A stretch of 44,370 nt of DNA from a virus (taxonomy: Duplodnaviria; Heunggongvirae; Uroviricota; Caudoviricetes). The position numbers and the translations under genes are program-made. The notes below the pieces were generated by a model, which was given only the letters and a program-made list of their open reading frames with translations, had not been told where the DNA came from and searched no databases. This document shows positions 5,710 to 39,603 of the stretch, one piece after another. Location: IMG/VR virus record IMGVR_UViG_3300045988_005581. The stretch is one strand, 5' to 3'. Position 1 is the stretch's first letter; each line of letters begins with the position of its first letter.

Positions 5710-6786
5710 ATGCTATTAACTTTAGCGCCACAGGGTTTATCTATGAGCTTACTTACATCCCTAATCAGCCATCAGATATGGCTGCAACGCACCGCATCCG
5801 GTGAAGTGAAAGACCTCACGCCGTTCATTCAGGAGATAAGGGATGAAATCAAACGGCAGGTGCTGTTATTCGGTGACGACGGTCGCAGCACTGCGCGACT
5901 GAATAAACTGTTACGCGACCTGGAAGAAGCACTAACCGGTATTACGGGTGACTGGCAAACAAAGCTAACAGACGACCTTAAGGAACTGGCGGCGTACGAG
6001 GCTGAGTGGAACGTAAAGACACTGACCGCCAACGTAGACGCGGAATTTGTTACGCCTACCGCTGAGCAGGTATGGGCCGCTGCCGAGTTTCAACCATTAT
6101 CATTGAGCGACAAGCCCGTTGATTTCACCAAGCTGATGTCTGGATGGGGCGAAACGGAAGTAGCACGTCTTGTAACTGGAGTTAAGATGGGCTTTGTGCA
6201 AGGTCAAACCACACGGCAGATTGTTAAGAATGTTGTTGGCGCTGGTGGACTAGCCGACATCTCAGAACGTAACGCGACTACGGTAATCCGCACCGCGCTG
6301 TCCCACGTATCCAACGAGGCCCGTAACGAGACGTACCGCCAGAACGACGACATCATCGAGAAATATGAGTGGGTGTCAACTTTGGACAGCCGTACCAGCA
6401 CGATTTGCAGGGCCAGAGACGGAATGACGTGGGAAATCGGTAAAGGTCCGATGCCACCAGCCCATCCTAATTGCCGAAGTACCACTGCACCGGTAATCAG
6501 TTCAGAGTTCGACTTCCTTGATAAAGGCGCAAAACGTGCGGCTAAGGGTGCGTACGGCGGTACTCAGGTAAGCGCAGACACCACCTATTACGAGTTCCTG
6601 AAACAACAACCAGCATGGTTTCAGGACCAGGCGATCGGTCCTGTTCGTGGTAAGATTTTCCGTAACAGCGGTATATCGCCGGAAGAGTTTCGCGTAAAAT
6701 CTGTAGATGGTTTCGGGAATCCGCTTACGCTTAAGCAGATGGCGGAACTCGATAAACGTGTTGCTGATTATCTGAAAGGGGATTAA
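5710..6786 (+). CDS. head morphogenesis protein (Mu F / SPP1 gp7-like)
   Basis: Contains TLDSRTSTICRARDGMTWE, matching the conserved D-x-R-T...C...DG signature of Mu F-like minor head proteins as I recall it; sits after the portal gene. Start could be 5710 or 5740. Confidence 0.8.
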   Translation: MLLTLAPQGLSMSLLTSLISHQIWLQRTASGEVKDLTPFIQEIRDEIKRQVLLFGDDGRSTARLNKLLRDLEEALTGITGDWQTKLTDDLKELAAYEAEWNVKTLTANVDAEFVTPTAEQVWAAAEFQPLSLSDKPVDFTKLMSGWGETEVARLVTGVKMGFVQGQTTRQIVKNVVGAGGLADISERNATTVIRTALSHVSNEARNETYRQNDDIIEKYEWVSTLDSRTSTICRARDGMTWEIGKGPMPPAHPNCRSTTAPVISSEFDFLDKGAKRAAKGAYGGTQVSADTTYYEFLKQQPAWFQDQAIGPVRGKIFRNSGISPEEFRVKSVDGFGNPLTLKQMAELDKRVADYLKGD

Positions 6787-7247
6787 TGATGGGCTTTTTC
6801 AAAGTAACTGATGTGCCGTCACGTCGCGTAGTCCAGTACGCTCGGGTGTCTGGCTCTGGTGAGAACGTGGTGTTTATTGAGGATGAAAGTGTACTGGGTA
6901 CACCGGTAGACGACATGCCGTTTGCGGATAAAACCGGCATTGCGCTGCCTGCGGCCGGTATGCTCTATGAGATTCCGTATCTGGCGGACGCAGGCGATGT
7001 GTATTTCTCTGTGCAACCAAAAGACGCTGAACTGGCCGACGGCAGCGCGACTATCACTGTCGAAGTTAAAGCAGGTGAAGCGCCGTATGCACTGACCTGG
7101 TACAAAGACGGTAAGGAAGTTGTCAACGCCCCGGAAGAGGCACTTTCCTTGACGGTTAACGCAGTGGGTGAATACTTCGTTAAAGTTACCGATGCTGATG
7201 GTGTAGAGGCTGTCAGTAAAGCTGCGAAGGTCACTAAGCCCGAATGA
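6786..7247 (+). CDS. Ig-like domain protein (possible head decoration)
   Basis: C-terminal segment YALTWYKDGKEVV...GEYFVKVTDADG resembles Ig-like/BIG-type domains; shares the motif with ORF 10559..10909. Confidence 0.6.
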   Translation: MMGFFKVTDVPSRRVVQYARVSGSGENVVFIEDESVLGTPVDDMPFADKTGIALPAAGMLYEIPYLADAGDVYFSVQPKDAELADGSATITVEVKAGEAPYALTWYKDGKEVVNAPEEALSLTVNAVGEYFVKVTDADGVEAVSKAAKVTKPE

Positions 7248-7251
7248 TAAA

Positions 7252-7278
7252 AGGCCCCATTAAGGGGCCTTAGTTTTC
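7252..7278. terminator. bidirectional intrinsic terminator
   Basis: AGGCCCC (7252-7258) / GGGGCCT (7264-7270) with 5-nt loop; T-runs on both strands. Lies between convergent genes. Confidence 0.65.
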
Positions 7279-7480
7279 AACGGAATCTTGTGTTTAAATC
7301 CTGCTCGTGGACGACCCTCAGAACAGTGTCATAATCCCCGTATCTTCCAGGTTCAAATACATCTAATGCCTTGTAAGCAGACATTGCGTCAGGGAAAACC
7401 TGCAGAACCTTTTTAACACGGCACAAGTCACCGTCGAACTCTTCATCGAACTCTTGAACTACTTCGCAAATTGCATACAT
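7277..7480 (-). CDS. hypothetical acidic protein (67 aa), solitary antisense gene
   Basis: ATG at 7480 (minus) preceded by GGGGGTG RBS and a sigma70-like promoter; terminated by the bidirectional terminator. Confidence 0.5.
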   Translation of the reverse strand: MYAICEVVQEFDEEFDGDLCRVKKVLQVFPDAMSAYKALDVFEPGRYGDYDTVLRVVHEQDLNTRFR

Positions 7481-7507
7481 TTTTCACCCCCTGCTTAAGT
7501 TAACTGA

Positions 7508-7536
7508 ATAGTACCCTATTATATTGGGGTGTGCAA
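7508..7536 (-). promoter_or_regulatory. sigma70-like promoter TTGCAC-N17-TACTAT (minus strand) with embedded dyad
   Basis: On the minus strand: TTGCAC (7531-7536), 17 bp, TACTAT (7508-7513); dyad AATAG-N4-CTATT at 7507-7520. About 25 bp upstream of the ATG at 7480. Confidence 0.5.
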
Positions 7537-14596: not shown

Positions 14597-14620
14597 AGGC
14601 CCCTTTCGGGGCCTTTTTCT
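14597..14620. terminator. bidirectional intrinsic terminator
   Basis: AGGCCCC (14597-14603) / GGGGCCT (14608-14614), loop TTTC, T-runs on both strands; separates the tail-shaft operon from the convergent minus-strand cassette. Confidence 0.7.
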
Positions 14621-15174
14621 TACAAACCTAATTTTAAAGCAATGTCTATAACGTTCGATTTAACGTCACCCGGTATGATGTAGGTGTCGTAATCTTTTAC
14701 ACCACTAACATCGTACAGATAGCCACGGCTATCGCAGATGAACGTATAGCCGTCACGATGGAGGCGGACGATTCGCACGTCATGCCCCGCGGCGACGATA
14801 GGGGCAACTTCACTGGCGAATCCACCATCGGACACTACAAAAACTTCGTCGCCGTCAGGCAAGTTTTCAGCAAGATACTTACCGAAATAATCATCGCCGA
14901 ATACCGGTTTAATGAATTGCTCAGAAATGGCAATCATTAACCGGCGGCGGGACAACCCATTAAGAAAACCCTCGGGTTTTTCTTTCCGCGCCCGGTCGTC
15001 GTAGCCGTCGAGAAATTCGTGGTAAGCATCCTGGCCTAACGCTGCCAAAGCAATATTGAACATTGGATTCTTGAAACTGGTAGTTCCTTTCGCAAAGCCC
15101 ATTTCTACCAGCGCCATAGCAAGCGTGTCTTTCCCGCAACCCGCAGGGCCATTAAGAATAATTACCTTAGCCAT
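14620..15174 (-). CDS. deoxynucleoside monophosphate kinase-like P-loop kinase
   Basis: P-loop GPAGCGKDT near the N-terminus; the GKDT variant and overall spacing resemble T4 gp1-type dNMP kinases (recalled, not aligned). 184 aa. Confidence 0.65.
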   Translation of the reverse strand: MAKVIILNGPAGCGKDTLAMALVEMGFAKGTTSFKNPMFNIALAALGQDAYHEFLDGYDDRARKEKPEGFLNGLSRRRLMIAISEQFIKPVFGDDYFGKYLAENLPDGDEVFVVSDGGFASEVAPIVAAGHDVRIVRLHRDGYTFICDSRGYLYDVSGVKDYDTYIIPGDVKSNVIDIALKLGL

Positions 15175-15662
15175 TATTTATCGCTCCCGTGTGGTTTTAA
15201 GTGTGTAGAGTTCCCGTTACAGTCGTATTCGGTAACTGCGTGTGCGGTTATGCCGAGGTCACGGAAATGCTTTATTACCGCTGGAGAGTCGTCGAACGCA
15301 CACAAGATTCTTTCCAGTCCGAAAGCACGCAACACCTCTTCTTTAATTACGATGTCTTTTCTGTTGTCGTGTTTGCTGCGCATGATTAGCGTGTCAAACC
15401 TAACGTTATTCTCTCGTAACCATTCGCGAGTCTCCTCCTCAGCGTCATCACTTCGCCCGGTAAGGATAATTATAGTAAGTCCGGAATGCCACAGTACGCT
15501 ACACAAATGGATATTGTCGTATATCGGAGCGTCATCTTTGCAGGCCATGTTAAATGGCTTCCACGCCCACGTTTCTCCGTAGTTATCTTTTGGTAACAGG
15601 TGTAAGCGATGGGTACCGTCAGCCAATGTCCCGTCTAAATCGAAAATTACAATATCTTTCAT
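15174..15662 (-). CDS. HAD-superfamily phosphatase
   Basis: N-terminal DLDGTL (HAD motif I, DxDxT); 162 aa; TAATG-coupled to the kinase gene. Confidence 0.7.
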   Translation of the reverse strand: MKDIVIFDLDGTLADGTHRLHLLPKDNYGETWAWKPFNMACKDDAPIYDNIHLCSVLWHSGLTIIILTGRSDDAEEETREWLRENNVRFDTLIMRSKHDNRKDIVIKEEVLRAFGLERILCAFDDSPAVIKHFRDLGITAHAVTEYDCNGNSTHLKPHGSDK

Positions 15663-16789
15663 CCCAGCATCTCCGGTGAAATAGTTAAACGTGCGACCTC
15701 GCCATATTCGGCGCTATAAGTAATTACATTTGCACTGCGGCCCGACATCCATCCGCCGCGAGAGGCGTAGGCGTCTTTAGCCGCTAAGGTGCGGTGTTGC
15801 TCAACAATCATGTTACGGCTTTCTACAATCTTCTGGTGGTGCAGATGGCCTACGTGGGCGTAGCTGTAAACACTCTCGCCGAACGCTTTACGGAACTTGG
15901 CAATCATAACCGGTTCGATAGCGTCGAATCGTGCTTTATGCCCGTGATGGAAGAACAGCGTCGTTTTGCCGTGTTGCACCATCTTGTAAACATCCGGCGA
16001 CGTATCGACGAACACGCGCGGCTCATTGTCGTACAGCGTACTGAACATCTCAGCCAACCAAATCATACCCGATTCGTCGTGATTCCCTTGCACGATAAGC
16101 AAGCGAACATTTTTATGCTTAACCAACGCCATATCAACGACACGGCGGACCATACGAATCATGTAACGGACCAGTTTCTGATAGCGCGTGTCAGCGTCAA
16201 GGACATGACCGCTTGCGGGCGTAACGGCATCAAGACTATCGAAGTGCGCTAAGTCGCCAAGAAGATTGATAACCCCAGTACCGGCATCCGGTGCTTTCTG
16301 GAATGCTGCATCGAACCAACGAGAGAACAGGTCTTCCGCAATCTTCATGTCCCAGTCGTCGCCGCTCTCGTCGGCCCAGGCCAGCATACCGAGATGGAAA
16401 TCGGATACAGTGTAAAGATTGAGCAGCTTATCGTCCCGTTTGGCACGAACGGCTTTAACAGGTGCAACGGGCGTAATCTCCGATTTCATGCCTTCGATCA
16501 CGGCTTTCATCAATTCAACCTGACGTTCGGCGTCAGTGTCGGTCTTAACCCATTGCAACTTAGTGTTGCCGAACTCATCCACCAGTGACGACGTTCCTTT
16601 AATCTTATAGCCGTCCGGGACAAGGTGGCTAACATCACGTCCGTGACCTACACCTTTCTTAGCCAGCTTCGCTTTACGGATACGAATTACGCGGTCTGAG
16701 ATGCCGTATTTACGGGCGATGTCTACATTCTTCATTCCGGCGTTCAATTCTTCCTGTAACTGTTCGTCGGTTATTTTCTTCCGGGCCAT
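15659..16789 (-). CDS. calcineurin-like metallophosphoesterase with N-terminal HTH-like domain
   Basis: Motifs SDFH, GDLAHFD, GNHDE, HHGH and GHLHH match metallophosphoesterase signatures; N-terminal NVDIARKYGISDRVIR is HTH-like. RBS GAGGAAG. Confidence 0.75.
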   Translation of the reverse strand: MARKKITDEQLQEELNAGMKNVDIARKYGISDRVIRIRKAKLAKKGVGHGRDVSHLVPDGYKIKGTSSLVDEFGNTKLQWVKTDTDAERQVELMKAVIEGMKSEITPVAPVKAVRAKRDDKLLNLYTVSDFHLGMLAWADESGDDWDMKIAEDLFSRWFDAAFQKAPDAGTGVINLLGDLAHFDSLDAVTPASGHVLDADTRYQKLVRYMIRMVRRVVDMALVKHKNVRLLIVQGNHDESGMIWLAEMFSTLYDNEPRVFVDTSPDVYKMVQHGKTTLFFHHGHKARFDAIEPVMIAKFRKAFGESVYSYAHVGHLHHQKIVESRNMIVEQHRTLAAKDAYASRGGWMSGRSANVITYSAEYGEVARLTISPEMLG

Positions 16790-27185: not shown

Positions 27186-27323
27186 CTACTCTTCTGATAA
27201 CTTCTCCAGTACAAACGCCAGTTGCGCATTAGCGGCGTCTCTTTGCTGACGTAGCCGCAGAACCTCTTCTTCGAGTTCCTTGATACGTTTTTGCAATGCC
27301 GGAATTGGGGCTATGATGTTCAT
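27186..27323 (-). CDS. possible 45-aa coiled-coil peptide
   Basis: ATG at 27323 overlaps the stop of the upstream Toprim gene (ATGA); RBS-like GAGGAAA; predicted helical (KRIKELEEEVLRLRQQ). Speculative. Confidence 0.3.
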   Translation of the reverse strand: MNIIAPIPALQKRIKELEEEVLRLRQQRDAANAQLAFVLEKLSEE

Positions 27324-27835
27324 CTGGTAAATTTCCTCGCAAGATACGTTATTTCTTCTTCACAAAGTTCATCAAGGTCGTTAGATACAAATCCTCTGGT
27401 GAATGTTTTGCTGAACTTTAATCCAGCTTTATCATTGTCGCCAGCGCACACCCAGTCATACGGCAAAAGTGACATTTGCTGCCGTAGGTCTGTTGATATA
27501 TTTGACCCCAGTGCGCTTACAGCATTGAACCCGCAATTCATCAAGGCTACGGCTTTGAATATGCTTTCGGTAACAAATACCACCCCGCTTTCCGGCAAAT
27601 ACTCAAGCCCCCATAAACACGGCCTTGTTGTTCTGGTAAAGTACCGCGCGTCTTTAGGGTTTTTACAGTTCTTTTCGGCATGTGGTTTGTAATGCTGGTA
27701 TCCGCGAAGCCTACCGTCAAACCCCCACAGGTAAAACGTAGCTACTCCAGGGGCTAAGACTACCTGGAGACGGTCAGCGTCAAACCCACGCGCCAGCAGA
27801 TGAGCTTTAAGTAGAAACTCTTCGAAATCCATCAT
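27320..27835 (-). CDS. Toprim-like domain protein
   Basis: VFVTESIFKAV...DWVCAGDNDKAG carries a conserved Glu and a DxD motif in the spacing of Toprim domains; ATGA-coupled to the helicase gene. Confidence 0.5.
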   Translation of the reverse strand: MMDFEEFLLKAHLLARGFDADRLQVVLAPGVATFYLWGFDGRLRGYQHYKPHAEKNCKNPKDARYFTRTTRPCLWGLEYLPESGVVFVTESIFKAVALMNCGFNAVSALGSNISTDLRQQMSLLPYDWVCAGDNDKAGLKFSKTFTRGFVSNDLDELCEEEITYLARKFTR

Positions 27836-29256
27836 TTCTTACCTCGTCTCTTCATGTAATTAAGCAACTCTTCCTGTACCGATTTCTTCTCGTCGGTACG
27901 CGCGGCGACAACCTCGTCCAGAGTGTCTTTAGCAACGATGTGATAAAGGAACACCGGGCGCTCGTGACCCGCCTGTTTCTGGCGGACTGGGCCTATGCGC
28001 TCAACAACCTGCAAATAGTGCTCAAGGTTCCAGCCTTGCGAGATGAACGCCAGATGATGACCCCCGTCCTGTAAATTCAAACCATGCCCGGCTGACGCAG
28101 GATGCACGCATAAAATCTCGATTTCCCCACGGTTCCACGCTTCCATCTGCTTGTTCCCCCTAGCGCCTTTGGCGAACGCCTGTGCCTGTGGGAATCGCTT
28201 AAGGATACGCTCCAGTTCGTGTTTAAACTGATAGGCTACCAGCAACGGCGCACCCTGCAACTCCTCAACAATCGACTCGAGCGCATCCAGTTTCGTGTCG
28301 TGCACTTTCTCCCAGTCTTTGGTCGCTTCGCCATCCGGCCCTGACACATACACGGCACCAGATGCAATCTGCAAGCACTTTGAGGTCTTCGCCGCAGCGT
28401 TAGCCGCTTCAACTTCCCCGCTCTCCAGTTCTGCGAATAACTTCTCCTCCATATCTATGTACGCCTGACGCGCTTTCTTCGGCAGGTCTATTTCCACCGG
28501 TACGATAACAGGCGCTTCACAACCAAACCACTCGGCGGGGTCTATGGTCAGGCTGATGTCTTTCATCTTCTGATGAATCTCATTATCCGCACCCGGTCGT
28601 GCATGATACTCGCGGGCCATAGCCGATTTACCTTTCTGTACCGAGTTAAACCAGCGGTCGGTGAATGCTGTGTACGAAGAGCCGAGGCGCTCGCCAGCGT
28701 CGATAAACCAGTTCTGACCCCACAAGTCTTTGAGGCCGTTTGGCGACGGTGTGCCTGTCAGGTTGATGAAACGCTTAACCTTTCCGAACGCAACCTTGCT
28801 GAGCGCCTTTGCCCGCTTGCTACCACCCGAACGGCTGCGGAACGATTTAAGCTTCGTGCTTTCATCGGCAACGATAACCGTAAAAGGCCAGTCGTCTTTG
28901 CCGTAGTAGTCAATTAGCCACTCGATAACTTCGTAGTTAGTGCACACCACGTTAGCATCTGACTCCAGCGCTGCGATGCGGCGCTTCTCCGAACCAGTTG
29001 CATCTACGACACGCAGACAAGGGAATTGCCATTTCTCTTGTTCAGCGGGCCACGTACCGGACGCAACACGTAACGGGGCAAGGATTAACACGCGGTCCTC
29101 TTCCGTAAGCTGCCCGTTGCGGAACAGGCGGTTGAGCACCCACATAGTGGAGGAGGTTTTACCTCCCCCCATTCCGCACCAGATATTACAGCGCGGGTGT
29201 TGCAGCATGAACGAGGTCATGAGCTTCTGGTACTCGCGTCTTTGAAACTTAGACAT
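27832..29256 (-). CDS. SF2 (SNF2-like) helicase
   Basis: Motif I GMGGGKT, motif II VIVADEST, C-terminal helicase motifs (HPASAGHGLNLQ). ATG 29256 with GAGG RBS; tool start 29379 would overlap the upstream gene by 130 nt. Confidence 0.8.
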   Translation of the reverse strand: MSKFQRREYQKLMTSFMLQHPRCNIWCGMGGGKTSSTMWVLNRLFRNGQLTEEDRVLILAPLRVASGTWPAEQEKWQFPCLRVVDATGSEKRRIAALESDANVVCTNYEVIEWLIDYYGKDDWPFTVIVADESTKLKSFRSRSGGSKRAKALSKVAFGKVKRFINLTGTPSPNGLKDLWGQNWFIDAGERLGSSYTAFTDRWFNSVQKGKSAMAREYHARPGADNEIHQKMKDISLTIDPAEWFGCEAPVIVPVEIDLPKKARQAYIDMEEKLFAELESGEVEAANAAAKTSKCLQIASGAVYVSGPDGEATKDWEKVHDTKLDALESIVEELQGAPLLVAYQFKHELERILKRFPQAQAFAKGARGNKQMEAWNRGEIEILCVHPASAGHGLNLQDGGHHLAFISQGWNLEHYLQVVERIGPVRQKQAGHERPVFLYHIVAKDTLDEVVAARTDEKKSVQEELLNYMKRRGKK

Positions 29257-36055: not shown

Positions 36056-36283
36056 TTACTCGCCGTCGCCTTCTGTAAGGCTATCGTCTATTAATTCAAA
36101 TTTACCGTTTGGGTGTTGAATAGCTTCTTGCCCGCAATGGTCGCAGACAACAAGTTTATCGAACCCATCAAACTCGTCCCCGACTACGCAAGAAAGTACA
36201 AATTTATGTTTTGTGCACACTTCCTGCGATTCTCCGAAAATTGCTAGAAAACCTTTAGCTATGGCTCCCGTTATTGTGTTCAT
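36056..36283 (-). CDS. hypothetical zinc-ribbon-like protein (75 aa)
   Basis: Two Cys pairs (C..C ... CDHC); first gene downstream of the minus-strand promoter at 36312..36340. Confidence 0.5.
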   Translation of the reverse strand: MNTITGAIAKGFLAIFGESQEVCTKHKFVLSCVVGDEFDGFDKLVVCDHCGQEAIQHPNGKFELIDDSLTEGDGE

Positions 36284-36635: not shown

Positions 36636-36948
36636 ATAGCAACTTATCGAGTTCTTCCAAATTCTTAATAGTGTGTTGCACGTTCAGGTACTGAATCCAG
36701 GCGAGAAACCACGCACTTACAGGAAAACTTATAACAATAGTTATCGATATAATTAATTTGAAAAGGCACTTTATAATCTCTGCCAGCGTCATGTCTAAAA
36801 TGTCTTTAAACTCCGCAAAAATCCCCGCTGCATACACACAAAAAGTCCACCAGTTGTTGCTTACAGCGGAAACACATGTCAGGTATGACGGGCGGTATCC
36901 TGCCTTCACTGCTTTAAACGGGTTATCTATAAAATCGTAAATATTCAT
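36634..36948 (-). CDS. hypothetical membrane protein (104 aa)
   Basis: Two or three hydrophobic segments; ATGA-coupled to the end of the primase-helicase gene. Confidence 0.5.
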   Translation of the reverse strand: MNIYDFIDNPFKAVKAGYRPSYLTCVSAVSNNWWTFCVYAAGIFAEFKDILDMTLAEIIKCLFKLIISITIVISFPVSAWFLAWIQYLNVQHTIKNLEELDKLL

Positions 36949-39197
36949 TCCAAATCCTCCTCGGTCACTGTCAGCATTTCATTCGGCTCGTATATTGTCT
37001 TCGGAATCTTGTTATCTGTTATCATGGTGTTCAGTCTGTAACGGCCTGGGATTATCTGATTGTTTTCGTCAGTACCCGGAACAAGATACCCAGCCTCAAC
37101 CATTTTCTTAATCTTCCCGCGTTCTATGGCTTCTTTGGAGTTAAACGCCTTTGCGTTGGGGTCAGACTGCGCGAGCTTATTCGCTGCGGATACCGTGATG
37201 CCCTCGTTGCCGTTGTAGGTCCCCTCCGCCAGTTCAAACGCCGCGAGTATCGTGGCCTCGGAACTGTTGACGGCGTTCTCTATGGTTTTACGTACATTTT
37301 GTTTACCTTCGTTAGTTAACCCTTCTTCCCTCTCTTTCTCCTCGTCGGTCTTGAATGGCTCGAAGCCCCACGGCATCAATACAAGCGCCTTGTGCGGCTC
37401 AGGCAGGTCGAGGTTTACTATTGTGCCGTATTCCTCTGTGCTACCGAGGAACTCAACCGCGCGGTACTCTTTCGGCGGCGGTGCTTCACGGAACTGTACA
37501 GACTCCAGTACCATGCCAACCGTCTTCTGTTGCGGACCGTGCTTAAATTTAGAGTGGTATACGTTTATCTGACGGTCGGTAGCGCGTTCGATTGTCAGTT
37601 CCACGTCGACACCCGCATACAATGCTCCACTGCCGCGGGCTTTCTTTCCGCCCTTCGGAGTATGGTGAACGACACCGACAGCGGCTTTAGTTGCATCGCG
37701 CACTTCTTTCAGGATGGCGATAACTTTACCCATACCGATTGCCGTTGATGAACTGTTCTCGTCGAACTTATCAATCGTCAGGGCCAGCGTCTGGTTAAGG
37801 GTGTCGAAGGCAACCATGCCAATAGGTTCATCCCCCGCGGTTTCGCGCATCCTGCGGATTAGAGCTGGAATTTTTTTATCACCATGCGTAGCGAGTATTT
37901 CGCCCATATCGATGACATGTACATAATCTTTACCTTCCTCGCCATATTTAGCCGCGAGTGCATCAATACGTGTTCGTGTAGCTGCACCACCCTCGCCGTC
38001 AATATAGAAATGGTGGCAACGTTGGGTGTCAGCCCCCGCAAACCGGTACCCGGCGGCGCTCAGGTACATCATCCCCAGCGTATAGAATGATTTGTACGTG
38101 CCGGATTCCCCGACAATATCCCAGATACAATCCGACGGCATGTACCCCTCAACGACGAAATCAGCCTTTACCGGTTCTGGTAACTCGTCCTCTTCTTCAA
38201 GGTCTTCCAGCGTGCAAGTTACAGGCTCCTCGTTCTCTGTGCGGTGCAGTTCTTCAATCTCTTCATCCGGTAAATCAGGCAGAGCCGCACGAATGCTGTT
38301 AATACTGATAGGTTGCTTGTCTACGTTAAGCTCGTCTGGCAGGCCGCACATACGCAGGGCCAAATGCTGTCGGCGGTTAAGCTCGGTGCAAGCGCCGTTG
38401 TTTGTATGCTGGCACACAAAGCGCACTTCTTTACCATCAAGCATGATGCTTGTGGAGCCTTTGCCTGTATGCAGATGTTCGTTAGGGCATGGGACTTCGT
38501 ACCCGCGCCCGGAAGATAAAGCGTCAAGGCCAAGCTCGGCTTCGCAGAAATGCGCTATATCAGCATTAAGCCCATACTCATCGGCGGCAAGTGTCTTAAC
38601 TTCACGTTTACTCAACCCCATCTCTTCGGCTTTCTTGATGTACCGCTCGGCACGGATAACACGCCCTTCTGTAACCGTTATCTTTGACTCTCTATGTGGC
38701 AGATAGATAAGGCGGTTGCCGTCTTCCGTGCAGTGGTCACGCAAGGCTTCATCTATTTCTAACTCTGCACAAATAGCCCGTTGGACCATCCACGCGTCGT
38801 TAGAGTTAAACGGCGTGCGAGCCGGAACCAGAACGCGGAAGGCGTAATCACCGTTTTTACACACATGCTGATGCGATGCCGTTGTATGCAGAATATTGAA
38901 GAACGGTGCGTTCTTGAATTTGCGGGTAAGGTCGCGGTACTGAGTACGGTTGAGATGGTCAAAATCGAACTTAACCACACTGTCTTCCAGGATAGCGTTT
39001 TTACGGCGACCCCCAACAGGCGCAATAGCTTTCTGCTTAATCTTGGCAGCGTCGTACTCTTCCTTAGACCACGACGGATCCACGGATAAACGCTTCGATG
39101 TATCGCAGACATACTCCACAAACTGCTCGAGCGGCATCTCACGCGCTACAGGGTTTTTATCGAATGTGTTGCGCAGCGTTGCAAAAACAATATTCAT
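36945..39197 (-). CDS. primase-polymerase / replicative helicase fusion protein
   Basis: 750 aa; N-terminal region with AEP-like VVKFDFDH and Cys/His cluster; C-terminal RecA-like domain with Walker A GESGTYKS and Walker B-like VAFDTLNQ. Confidence 0.8.
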   Translation of the reverse strand: MNIVFATLRNTFDKNPVAREMPLEQFVEYVCDTSKRLSVDPSWSKEEYDAAKIKQKAIAPVGGRRKNAILEDSVVKFDFDHLNRTQYRDLTRKFKNAPFFNILHTTASHQHVCKNGDYAFRVLVPARTPFNSNDAWMVQRAICAELEIDEALRDHCTEDGNRLIYLPHRESKITVTEGRVIRAERYIKKAEEMGLSKREVKTLAADEYGLNADIAHFCEAELGLDALSSGRGYEVPCPNEHLHTGKGSTSIMLDGKEVRFVCQHTNNGACTELNRRQHLALRMCGLPDELNVDKQPISINSIRAALPDLPDEEIEELHRTENEEPVTCTLEDLEEEDELPEPVKADFVVEGYMPSDCIWDIVGESGTYKSFYTLGMMYLSAAGYRFAGADTQRCHHFYIDGEGGAATRTRIDALAAKYGEEGKDYVHVIDMGEILATHGDKKIPALIRRMRETAGDEPIGMVAFDTLNQTLALTIDKFDENSSSTAIGMGKVIAILKEVRDATKAAVGVVHHTPKGGKKARGSGALYAGVDVELTIERATDRQINVYHSKFKHGPQQKTVGMVLESVQFREAPPPKEYRAVEFLGSTEEYGTIVNLDLPEPHKALVLMPWGFEPFKTDEEKEREEGLTNEGKQNVRKTIENAVNSSEATILAAFELAEGTYNGNEGITVSAANKLAQSDPNAKAFNSKEAIERGKIKKMVEAGYLVPGTDENNQIIPGRYRLNTMITDNKIPKTIYEPNEMLTVTEEDLE

Positions 39198-39390: not shown

Positions 39391-39603
39391 TTACTTAACG
39401 CCCGCAATCCACGCACGCTCCGAAGCGTAGAAACGACACTTACTTAAAGCCTCGATTGGCATCTTAATAATGCGTGTCGGTTCCAACAAATGATTAGGCT
39501 TACATATTTCCGCATAGAATCCGCTGTCAGTAATTTCCGGCGCAAACTTAAACCGGTATTTAACTTTACAGTTTTCAAAGTAACAACCCATACGCCCAAT
39601 CAT
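39391..39603 (-). CDS. hypothetical protein (70 aa)
   Basis: ORF-track ORF, ATGA-coupled to the upstream HTH gene. Confidence 0.5.
   Translation of the reverse strand: MIGRMGCYFENCKVKYRFKFAPEITDSGFYAEICKPNHLLEPTRIIKMPIEALSKCRFYASERAWIAGVK

Follow-up and report, generated by a model that had tools for sequence, protein, structure and literature searches.

The stretch of DNA analysed here (the window, 44,370 nucleotides; IMG/VR record IMGVR_UViG_3300045988_005581, Caudoviricetes) is an essentially complete 44.4-kb Kagunavirus genome (Guernseyvirinae), which shares 98.8% identity with Escherichia phage vB_EcoS-22664BS2 over the 4 kb compared. We focus on a gene for a protein of 171 amino acids (aa), which public records name "DNA primase", "toprim domain-containing protein" or "hypothetical protein". 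The protein is a stand-alone RNA-polymerase domain (RPD) of the DnaG type, and comparison with related phages strongly supports the view that its gene is accessory and does not encode the replicative primase of the phage. The gene and its parts are the following.

27320..27835, minus strand: stand-alone DnaG-type RPD gene (Toprim protein), 171 aa; identified from the open reading frame (ORF), Pfam, PHROG, AlphaFold2, fold matches and pN/pS
27832..27845, minus strand: junction with the helicase gene, read from the sequence; ATGA start/stop overlap at 27832-27835 and GAGG at 27842-27845
27596..27835, minus strand: N-terminal subdomain, residues 1-80, helix and beta-sheet; from secondary structure, invariant columns and hhalign to DnaG 197-356
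27365..27586, minus strand: Toprim domain, residues 84-157; Pfam Toprim_2 at residues 87-147, with alignments to DnaG and T7 gp4
27566-27568, minus strand: Toprim Glu, E90 in VTESIFKA
27554-27556, minus strand: K94, at the position of the DnaG motif IV Asp
27431-27439, minus strand: D133-N-D135 in GDNDKAG
27371-27379, minus strand: third acidic motif, D153-L-D155

The first ATG of the RPD gene (27833-27835) overlaps the TGA of an SNF2 helicase gene (27832-27834) to form the ATGA, and the Shine-Dalgarno-like GAGG element stands 6 nt 5' of this start. At the other end, the TGA of the RPD gene (27320-27322) overlaps the ATG of a 45-aa ORF (27321-27323) in a second ATGA. A pN/pS of 0.09-0.16 against seven Kagunavirus relatives indicates purifying selection, and 488 phage records contain the protein according to tblastn. 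The ORF is a genuine gene of the phage and well conserved, already annotated in hundreds of records. The original prediction had stressed its translational coupling to the SF2/SNF2 helicase. The overlap is present but not distinctive, as in fEg-Eco06, an annotated relative, 20 of the 31 pairs of adjacent genes on the same strand overlap, and for 10 of the 20 the overlap is exactly 4 nt. Since overlaps are the norm in this genome type, the ATGA is no evidence of a partnership with the helicase, and we dropped the idea that coupling implies one.

A complete DnaG-type catalytic core and its family

Predicted structure is the most direct guide to what the protein is. An AlphaFold2 model built on a 14-sequence alignment reaches a pLDDT of 94.5 and a pTM of 0.89, and in a Foldseek comparison with the PDB the 32 best matches are all RPDs of DnaG-type primases. 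Matches include DnaG of Aquifex, Mycobacterium, Staphylococcus and Pseudomonas, E. coli DnaG (1dd9, TMq 0.69) and T4 gp61 (8dvf); OLD, topoisomerase and RecR chains are absent from the 50 fold matches listed. In BFVD the protein matches its T5-like homologues (TM 0.84), followed by viral DnaG-like primases. The Toprim fold on which the original prediction depended is therefore predicted with high confidence.

Sequence comparison alone is less sensitive: with the 171-aa query, a search of PDB sequences reaches no further than E ~1.5, for E. coli DnaG, and the relationship had to be established from folds and profiles. The Pfam Toprim_2 match (23.1 bits, E 9.6e-5) is just above the gathering cut-off of 22.1, PHROG 849 ('DNA primase') matches at E 2.7e-48, and hhalign places family positions 27-172 on residues 197-356 of E. 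coli DnaG (probability 96.6). The N-terminal subdomain, which in DnaG-type primases contains motifs II-III and shapes the template/NTP groove jointly with Toprim, carries the DnaG-like motifs G45-Y-Q (a hairpin), K55..N59-P60, R64-Y65-F-T and L74-W-G76-L. All 171 residues map onto the RPD, and this whole-length match means that the protein represents the whole primase catalytic core and not a Toprim domain alone. Within the 171 aa there are five isolated Cys and no CxxC pair that could form a zinc-binding domain. There is likewise no helicase-binding C-terminal domain and no fused helicase, the protein ending 14 residues past motif VI. These comparisons show a complete catalytic core of the DnaG/T7-gp4 type without zinc-binding, helicase-binding or helicase domains. 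"Minimal DnaG-type primase core", one of the descriptions offered initially, was structurally right. Another of them, a remnant of an OLD-type nuclease, was rejected: OLD-family nucleases share a Toprim domain with Glu and DxD motifs, but their ABC-type ATPase domain is not found in the window protein, and PADLOC gave a weak DnaG-like match only.

The Toprim-like Glu and DxD motifs noticed at the outset are indeed in place. E90, D133/D135 and D153/D155 do not vary among 14 homologues with identities as low as 50%. Across 86 diverse members of the family (~33% mean identity to the window protein), conservation reaches or approaches 90% or more at E90, D133, D135 and D153, and G45, Y65 and G76 are invariant. 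This conservation bears on the idea of a non-catalytic subunit or decoy, that is, a cofactor of the helicase or a mimic that sequesters a factor of the host or a defence system built on Toprim. Small size, co-expression with a helicase and the presence of family members in the accessory and counter-defence islands of large phages would suit such a role. The retention of catalytic acids at 90% or more in a family that has diverged to ~30% identity is, however, hard to explain without catalysis, and the PADLOC match is generic to Toprim. We regard this explanation as highly improbable.

One catalytic position departs from DnaG. The second acidic residue of DnaG motif IV (EGxxD, D269) is Lys94 in the window protein, and the Lys is invariant in its sub-clade. 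Among 166 family proteins the position holds Asp in 77, Lys in 57 and Glu in 8; the Lys-bearing proteins include those of the window, of T5-like phages and of jumbo phages. The resulting E-x-x-x-K arrangement (TE90SIFK94A) is also found in E. coli topoisomerase I (VE9SPAK13A), and a role has been assigned to Lys13 in type IA topoisomerases. The protein could accordingly be imagined as a Toprim nuclease acting on RNA or DNA, in which the Glu and DxD form the metal site and Lys94 acts like Lys13, and which would remove primers, process tRNA precursors of phage or host, or trim damaged ends. Apart from its resemblance to topoisomerase I in place of the DnaG EGxxD, such a nuclease would fit the association of the family with tRNA arrays, CCA-adding enzymes and end-healing genes described below, and RNA-acting Toprim nucleases are known (RNase M5 and the AriB and OLD tRNases). 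Against it stand the strong conservation of the DnaG-specific N-terminal subdomain and of the nucleotide- and template-groove motifs, the retention of Asp by about half of the family in similar contexts, and the primase identity of the best fold matches, RNase M5 appearing at E 0.02. We consider a nuclease quite unlikely. An RNase M5-like protein in particular was rejected: RNase M5 (PDB 6Z2B/6TPQ) has a Glu and DxD Toprim domain in common with the window protein, but it ranks 34th among the fold matches, over ~95 residues at E 0.02-0.06, and the match is weak and confined to the Toprim half, the N-terminal half being DnaG-like. RNase M5 itself joins its Toprim to a C-terminal rRNA/L18-binding domain and has no primase N-subdomain.

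The protein does not stand alone. A HMMER scan of 1.84 billion representatives recovers 632 clusters (50% identity, E <= 1e-3); 125 of the 147 top family matches examined are no longer than 215 aa, and 79 of 80 sampled IMG/VR genes encode 171-198 aa. Members are mostly stand-alone proteins of 165-200 aa with the consensus motifs GYQxYxP, RYFT, WGLE, TE[GS]xF[DK]A, DxDxAG and DLDE, all of which occur in the window protein. It belongs to this stand-alone, zinc-finger-less RPD family, which corresponds in part to PHROG 849. A scan of 185,579 species genomes gave about nine full-length relatives, mostly on contigs of metagenome-assembled genomes, and a scan of bacterial genomes with a narrow alignment gave nothing; relatives being so few there, the family is essentially viral.

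The homologue occupies two ORFs in many jumbo phages, cut exactly between the N-terminal subdomain and the Toprim domain. Examples are found at 6001-6508 of locus L013 (a +1 shift), at 7010-7508 of locus L023 (Erwinia phage Y3) and in Erwinia, Dickeya and Serratia jumbo phages. A conserved frameshift, a gene that is genuinely split and a pseudogene are all conceivable readings of this arrangement.

A probable accessory gene in a replication operon

The evidence on whether this core serves replication comes from phages that carry it beside another primase, or do without it. T5-like phages possess a homologue (46-48% identity) in addition to a canonical DnaB-like helicase and primase. In the T5-like phage FFH1, 30 kb separate the 172-aa homologue from the replication module, which holds the DnaB-like helicase and the 296-aa primase; in these phages the homologue heads a tRNA array, 2 kb from a Band-7 gene. 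T5 st0 (113,238 bp) is without the 8.5-kb segment between T5p066 and T5p079 that holds the homologue, as its genome record documents with an annotated junction. Consistent with this, st0 is not among the six records at 99% identity or more, and the wild-type 7.4-kb segment is unmatched in st0. The deletion strain is viable and in standard laboratory use, and the homologue is dispensable in T5. Dhillonvirus SSL-2009a offers a complementary case, as it shares the cassette of helicase-primase, DUF2800 exonuclease, single-stranded DNA-binding protein (SSB), PolA (65%), VRR-NUC and SNF2 helicase (65%) with the window, yet no RPD homologue is found in it even at E <= 1. Coexistence with a primase in T5-like phages, loss in st0 and absence from Dhillonvirus together argue that the RPD is not a replicative primase, and an accessory status is strongly supported.

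As to the Band-7/SPFH gene of T5 (L109 546-1493; AY587007 39712-40659), its annotated start overlaps a tRNA-Arg gene. The gene lies 2 kb from the T5 homologue, and the whole segment is gone from st0.

In the window, the RPD gene belongs to the 3' end of a long replication operon on the minus strand, towards which a tailspike gene converges from the opposite strand. The order is a 750-aa helicase-primase, a DUF2800 PD-(D/E)XK exonuclease, an Enc34-type SSB, a family-A DNA polymerase, VRR-NUC, a cytosine methyltransferase, the SNF2 helicase, the RPD and the 45-aa ORF. Three of these genes need coordinates here.

36945..39197, minus strand: 750-aa 'replicative helicase-primase'; AAA_25 2e-20 (RepA/DnaB-like), PHROG 3228, AEP-like N-terminal motifs, zinc module
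27832..29256, minus strand: SNF2-family helicase, 474 aa; Pfam SNF2-rel_dom 3.4e-13, PHROG 62, annotated gene of 474 aa in a relative
27186..27323, minus strand: 45-aa predicted coiled-coil ORF; PHROG 5915 at 2e-27, weak coiled-coil Pfam matches, annotated in a relative

The 750-aa protein is likely to be the replicative primase of the phage, with a domain resembling archaeo-eukaryotic primases (AEP) fused to a helicase. Its N-terminal 330 aa have no Pfam match. An alignment of five sequences, which draws on homologues from Dhillonvirus, Eiauvirus and Jersey-type phages that share 27-39% identity with the window protein, nevertheless reveals an invariant AEP-like pattern (D78-x-D80, H111, D154, R162) and an equally invariant Cys/His zinc module (C237, H243, C262, H264). 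One homologue matches Pfam BT4734-like_N (PF08800, an AEP family) at E 1.9e-6. The AlphaFold2 model of the N-terminal domain has a pLDDT of only 37.5 because the homologues used share 97-100% identity over it; searches of PDB sequences with the domain, by sequence and by profile, returned nothing, and a word-indexed homologue search with the N-terminal fragment returned two partial proteins only. The initial claim that the genome already encodes a large primase-polymerase/helicase is thus solid for the AAA_25 helicase, and for the primase half likely though short of proof. Identity between this Kagunavirus and Salmonella Guernseyvirinae is only ~28-29% in the N-terminal domain of the helicase-primase; for the Toprim protein, Kagunavirus and Jerseyvirus jersey share ~91%. 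This suggests a strongly mosaic replication module.

Other genes around the RPD vary among relatives. The window SNF2 helicase is 65-72% identical to helicases of Dhillonvirus and other siphophages and has no homology at BLAST level to T5 helicase D10. A mechanical ORF list starts it at GTG 29379 (515 aa, overlapping the methyltransferase gene by 131 nt), and annotated relatives start it at ATG 29256 (474 aa, with an overlap of only 8 nt). In Salmonella phage 5sent1 (MT653144.1, Guernseyvirinae) the SNF2 helicase adjoining the Toprim gene is annotated as intein-containing. The 45-aa ORF falls in a PHROG of unknown function (5915) and is named 'exonuclease subunit' in one GenBank record; it is not found downstream of homologues in other siphophage lineages, where a Dam or C5 methylase takes its place.

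For gene neighbourhoods across the family we compared 80 IMG/VR loci of the Asp sub-type (38 groups at <85% identity) and 71 of the Lys sub-type (37 groups), clustering the neighbours and running Pfam on one representative of each. The loci come from related phages picked by peptide patterns and from crude ORF calling, so the counts given from here on are descriptive, with no formal null model. Four other siphophage lineages (53-60% identity) also have the SNF2 helicase followed by the RPD, the two genes overlapping by 1 or 4 nt, and differ in what lies downstream. BLASTP finds no homologue of the window SNF2 helicase in the 80 Asp-type loci, and among Lys-type loci the helicase lies beside the RPD in Guernseyvirinae-like ones only. 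For the helicase partner that was also suggested initially, the conserved order counts in favour; the commonness of overlaps, the 65%-identical SNF2 helicase that Dhillonvirus has without an RPD and the lack of such a neighbour beyond the sub-clade count against, and sequence does not decide between them.

These neighbourhoods also help to weigh the most conventional explanation, that of a genuine second DNA primase making RNA primers at forks or origins, for which another protein would provide DNA binding and site choice in trans, whether the SNF2 helicase, the 750-aa protein with its zinc module or a small zinc-ribbon protein. The complete RPD fold and motifs, the position within the replication operon, the conserved SNF2-to-RPD order and the 'DNA primase' label in PHROG and GenBank all suit this explanation. 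Relatives with N-terminal zinc-finger extensions exist (P0082, DUF3268 plus RPD; the T5 primase), and jumbo phages have DnaG-like Toprim proteins with separate, stand-alone primase-type zinc ribbons (Iyer et al., 2021; PMC7824862). A zinc-ribbon partner is not consistently present, however: no adjacent ORF of that kind is conserved across the sampled loci (5 of 38 Asp-type and 6 of 37 Lys-type groups, against a per-ORF background of 1.6%), none lies beside the window gene, and the two small Cys/His ORFs of the window are far off (36056-36283 and 39391-39603). Beyond one sub-clade the family never adjoins replisome genes, it coexists with other primases in Guernseyvirinae as it does in T5-like phages, and the motif IV Asp is replaced by Lys. 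Together with the st0 deletion and the absence from Dhillonviruses with the same replisome, these observations make a second primase doubtful, though worth keeping in view.

Neighbouring genes and a possible role in end repair

Outside the sub-clade with the SNF2-to-RPD order, the genes around the RPD are of another kind. Within 4 kb of Asp-type members we find T4-type RNA ligase 1 (Rnl1) in 14 of the 38 groups, a calcineurin-like metallophosphoesterase in 12, an AAA_33 P-loop kinase in 9, an ATP-dependent DNA ligase and a GIY-YIG endonuclease in 6 each, and a PNKP kinase/HAD phosphatase, NAMPT and an SPFH/Band-7 protein in 5 each. A gene for an RNA ligase, a polynucleotide kinase/phosphatase or a CCA-adding enzyme lies within this distance in 17 of 38 groups; when lineages are defined by 60% single linkage, a healing or sealing gene is nearby in 8 of 13. 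One locus (L045) contains metallophosphoesterase, HAD phosphatase, kinase, RPD and Rnl1 contiguously, and the order varies among loci. Lys-type members (37 groups) neighbour a DNA ligase (9), a 244-aa metallophosphoesterase (9), NAMPT/NMNAT-Nudix (5), an SLOG protein and DUF7831, and no Rnl1 was seen in their loci.

Links to tRNA maturation appear as well. In Vibrio phages F100, helene and eugene and in Shewanella phage 1/40, a CCA-adding enzyme gene lies directly upstream and its end is overlapped by the RPD gene. The two are also fused in both orders (P0112, CCA head, RNA-binding and HD domains followed by the RPD; P0100, RPD followed by the CCA head). Further fusions join the RPD to a HAD phosphatase, to a cytidylyltransferase with a weak RNA-ligase-like C-terminus and to a DUF3268 zinc finger. 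tRNA genes lie within 7 kb in 9 of the 80 IMG/VR loci only, so any enrichment is modest. Taken together, this wider context of the family suggests a function away from replication.

The window itself encodes a set of end-healing candidates at some distance from the RPD.

14620-15174, minus strand: P-loop kinase
15174-15662, minus strand: HAD_PNKP-type 3'-phosphatase; Pfam HAD_PNKP 73 bits, 'polynucleotide kinase' in relatives
15659-16789, minus strand: metallophosphoesterase-like protein ('DNA repair exonuclease'); weak Metallophos_2

The phosphatase is homologous to a cluster of family neighbours (cluster 142; BLASTP 1e-11 to 2e-16), and both it and the kinase are missing from Dhillonvirus, which is without the RPD too. 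A link between this trio and the RPD is what we infer from these patterns. The trio, on the minus strand, sits within the plus-strand tail module and resembles a Pnkp-type end-healing set that has been split up; the genome has no ligase.

Several other associations deserve mention. NAD+-salvage pairs (NAMPT and NMNAT-Nudix) directly adjoin the family gene in unrelated large-phage contigs (L038, L052, L077, L083, L115-L126). Among long metagenomic proteins, P0056, P0069 and P0110 join the RPD to Arr-like (rifampin ADP-ribosyltransferase-type), GNAT acetyltransferase and Mom-family domains, all of which are conflict-related. A short repeated C-terminal motif, NPETGNxILVKTALKYxxxHPAY..., is shared by P0072, P0075, P0090, P0095, P0110, P0119 and P0138, and in some of them it is N-terminal as well. 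Such long 'fusions' may be read-through of adjoining genes in viruses with an altered genetic code.

From its gene context, the RPD is probably an enzyme of repair or counter-defence, and the existing "DNA primase" annotation is probably misleading. What it would do is a more tentative matter. The recurrence of kinase, phosphatase, phosphoesterase, ligase and CCA-enzyme genes suggests a nucleotidyl-transfer step in end repair, and our working proposal, plausible enough to pursue without our counting on it, is a metal-dependent nucleotidyl-transfer enzyme in the repair or restart of nucleic-acid ends. The missing zinc finger probably makes de novo choice of priming sites impossible; T7 gp4 without its zinc motif loses template-directed primer synthesis and still forms phosphodiester bonds. 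With Mg2+ or Mn2+, the RPD would add or extend ribonucleotides on pre-existing ends or at gaps, and would thereby provide the 'polymerase' component of end-healing and sealing or of restart pathways. In Kagunavirus the co-expressed SNF2 translocase might deliver it to stalled or remodelled forks, and the phage kinase, HAD-type 3'-phosphatase and metallophosphoesterase might prepare the ends. The substrate could be either DNA or RNA (tRNA).

Several points weigh against this proposal. The RPD gene lies in a replication operon and the SNF2-to-RPD order is kept in its sub-clade, an arrangement no less compatible with a role in replication. Genes for a ligase, a CCA-adding enzyme or tRNAs are absent from the window, its end-healing genes are more than 10 kb from the RPD (11.7 kb for the HAD_PNKP phosphatase), and about half of the lineages have no repair gene nearby. 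Proximity may also not mean shared function, as large phages pile unrelated accessory genes in islands. Finally, K94 replaces an acid that is kept in DnaG, T7 gp4 and the T5 primase, and this could alter the chemistry, including towards cleavage.

A narrower version would make the RPD a DnaG-derived polymerase for tRNA repair or maintenance that counters tRNA-targeting host defences. It might fill in, on a template, the truncated 3' strand of the acceptor stem ahead of CCA addition, or else restore excised anticodon-loop nucleotides ahead of ligation by Rnl1; in Guernseyvirinae the same enzyme would have been placed behind an SNF2 translocase. We judge this version unlikely. If it were true, a Toprim enzyme would join an RNA-repair toolkit of ligases, kinases, phosphatases and Pol-beta-type nucleotidyltransferases. 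The RNA-repair section of a survey of jumbo phages includes ligases, kinases, phosphoesterases, RlaP, the CCA-adding enzyme and Thg1, and no Toprim enzyme (PMC7824862).

Comparison with known systems

The gene itself is not new. Its family's association with repair genes was not found described in the literature searched, in which no paper joins Toprim with Kagunavirus and genome announcements repeat annotations only. If the RPD is indeed a polymerase or nuclease of repair or counter-defence, the DnaG catalytic domain would be seen in a new role, "DNA primase" annotations, which number in the hundreds, would be corrected, and a testable player would be added to the phage response to defence systems that damage tRNA and DNA. 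T5 and Kagunavirus phages are easily manipulated, which makes the question directly testable.

Among characterised enzymes, the primase-helicase encoded by T7 gene 4 (PDB 1NUI, 1Q57) offers a close structural counterpart. The two-subdomain fold is alike over the 171 aa (TMq 0.66; for 1nui a root-mean-square deviation of 3.9 A over ~188 columns), the RPD is of similar size, and E90, D133 and D135 align with E157, D207 and D209 in the residue numbering of the T7 literature. T7 gp4 differs in its Cys4 zinc-binding domain, its C-terminal helicase and the Asp of its EGEID motif (Lys here), and identity is ~14%. The bacterial DnaG core (E. coli 1DD9/1DDE/3B39; S. aureus 4E2K) corresponds motif by motif: the GYQ hairpin to GFGGR, K55..N59-P60 to KYLNSP, LWGL to LYGL and, in E. 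coli numbering, E90 to E265, D133/D135 to D309/D311 and D153/D155 to D345/D347 (motif VI). E. coli DnaG has in addition D269 (K94 here), a zinc-binding domain, the C-terminal helical subdomain of the core and a DnaB-binding domain, and the DnaG core is about twice as large as the window protein.

Among phage proteins, the canonical primase of T5-like phages (296 aa) aligns with the family over residues 126-284 (hhalign probability 94.9), and differs in its extra N-terminal ~125 aa and its location in the replication module beside the DnaB-like helicase. The split primases of jumbo phages are likewise without a fused zinc ribbon (Iyer et al., 2021); in contrast to them, the present family has no conserved zinc-ribbon gene as a companion, none lies beside the window gene, and another primase is present.

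In function, the nearest analogy may lie with end-repair modules such as T4 Pnkp and Rnl1 or the POL-PE-LIG arrangement of LigD, among whose counterparts the family is often found, though in the window they are not physically linked to it. A further functional analogy would be with the transferases that restore nucleotides in RNA repair. The POL domain of bacterial LigD is an AEP and not a Toprim enzyme, and the RPD might thus parallel this domain in function and not in ancestry.

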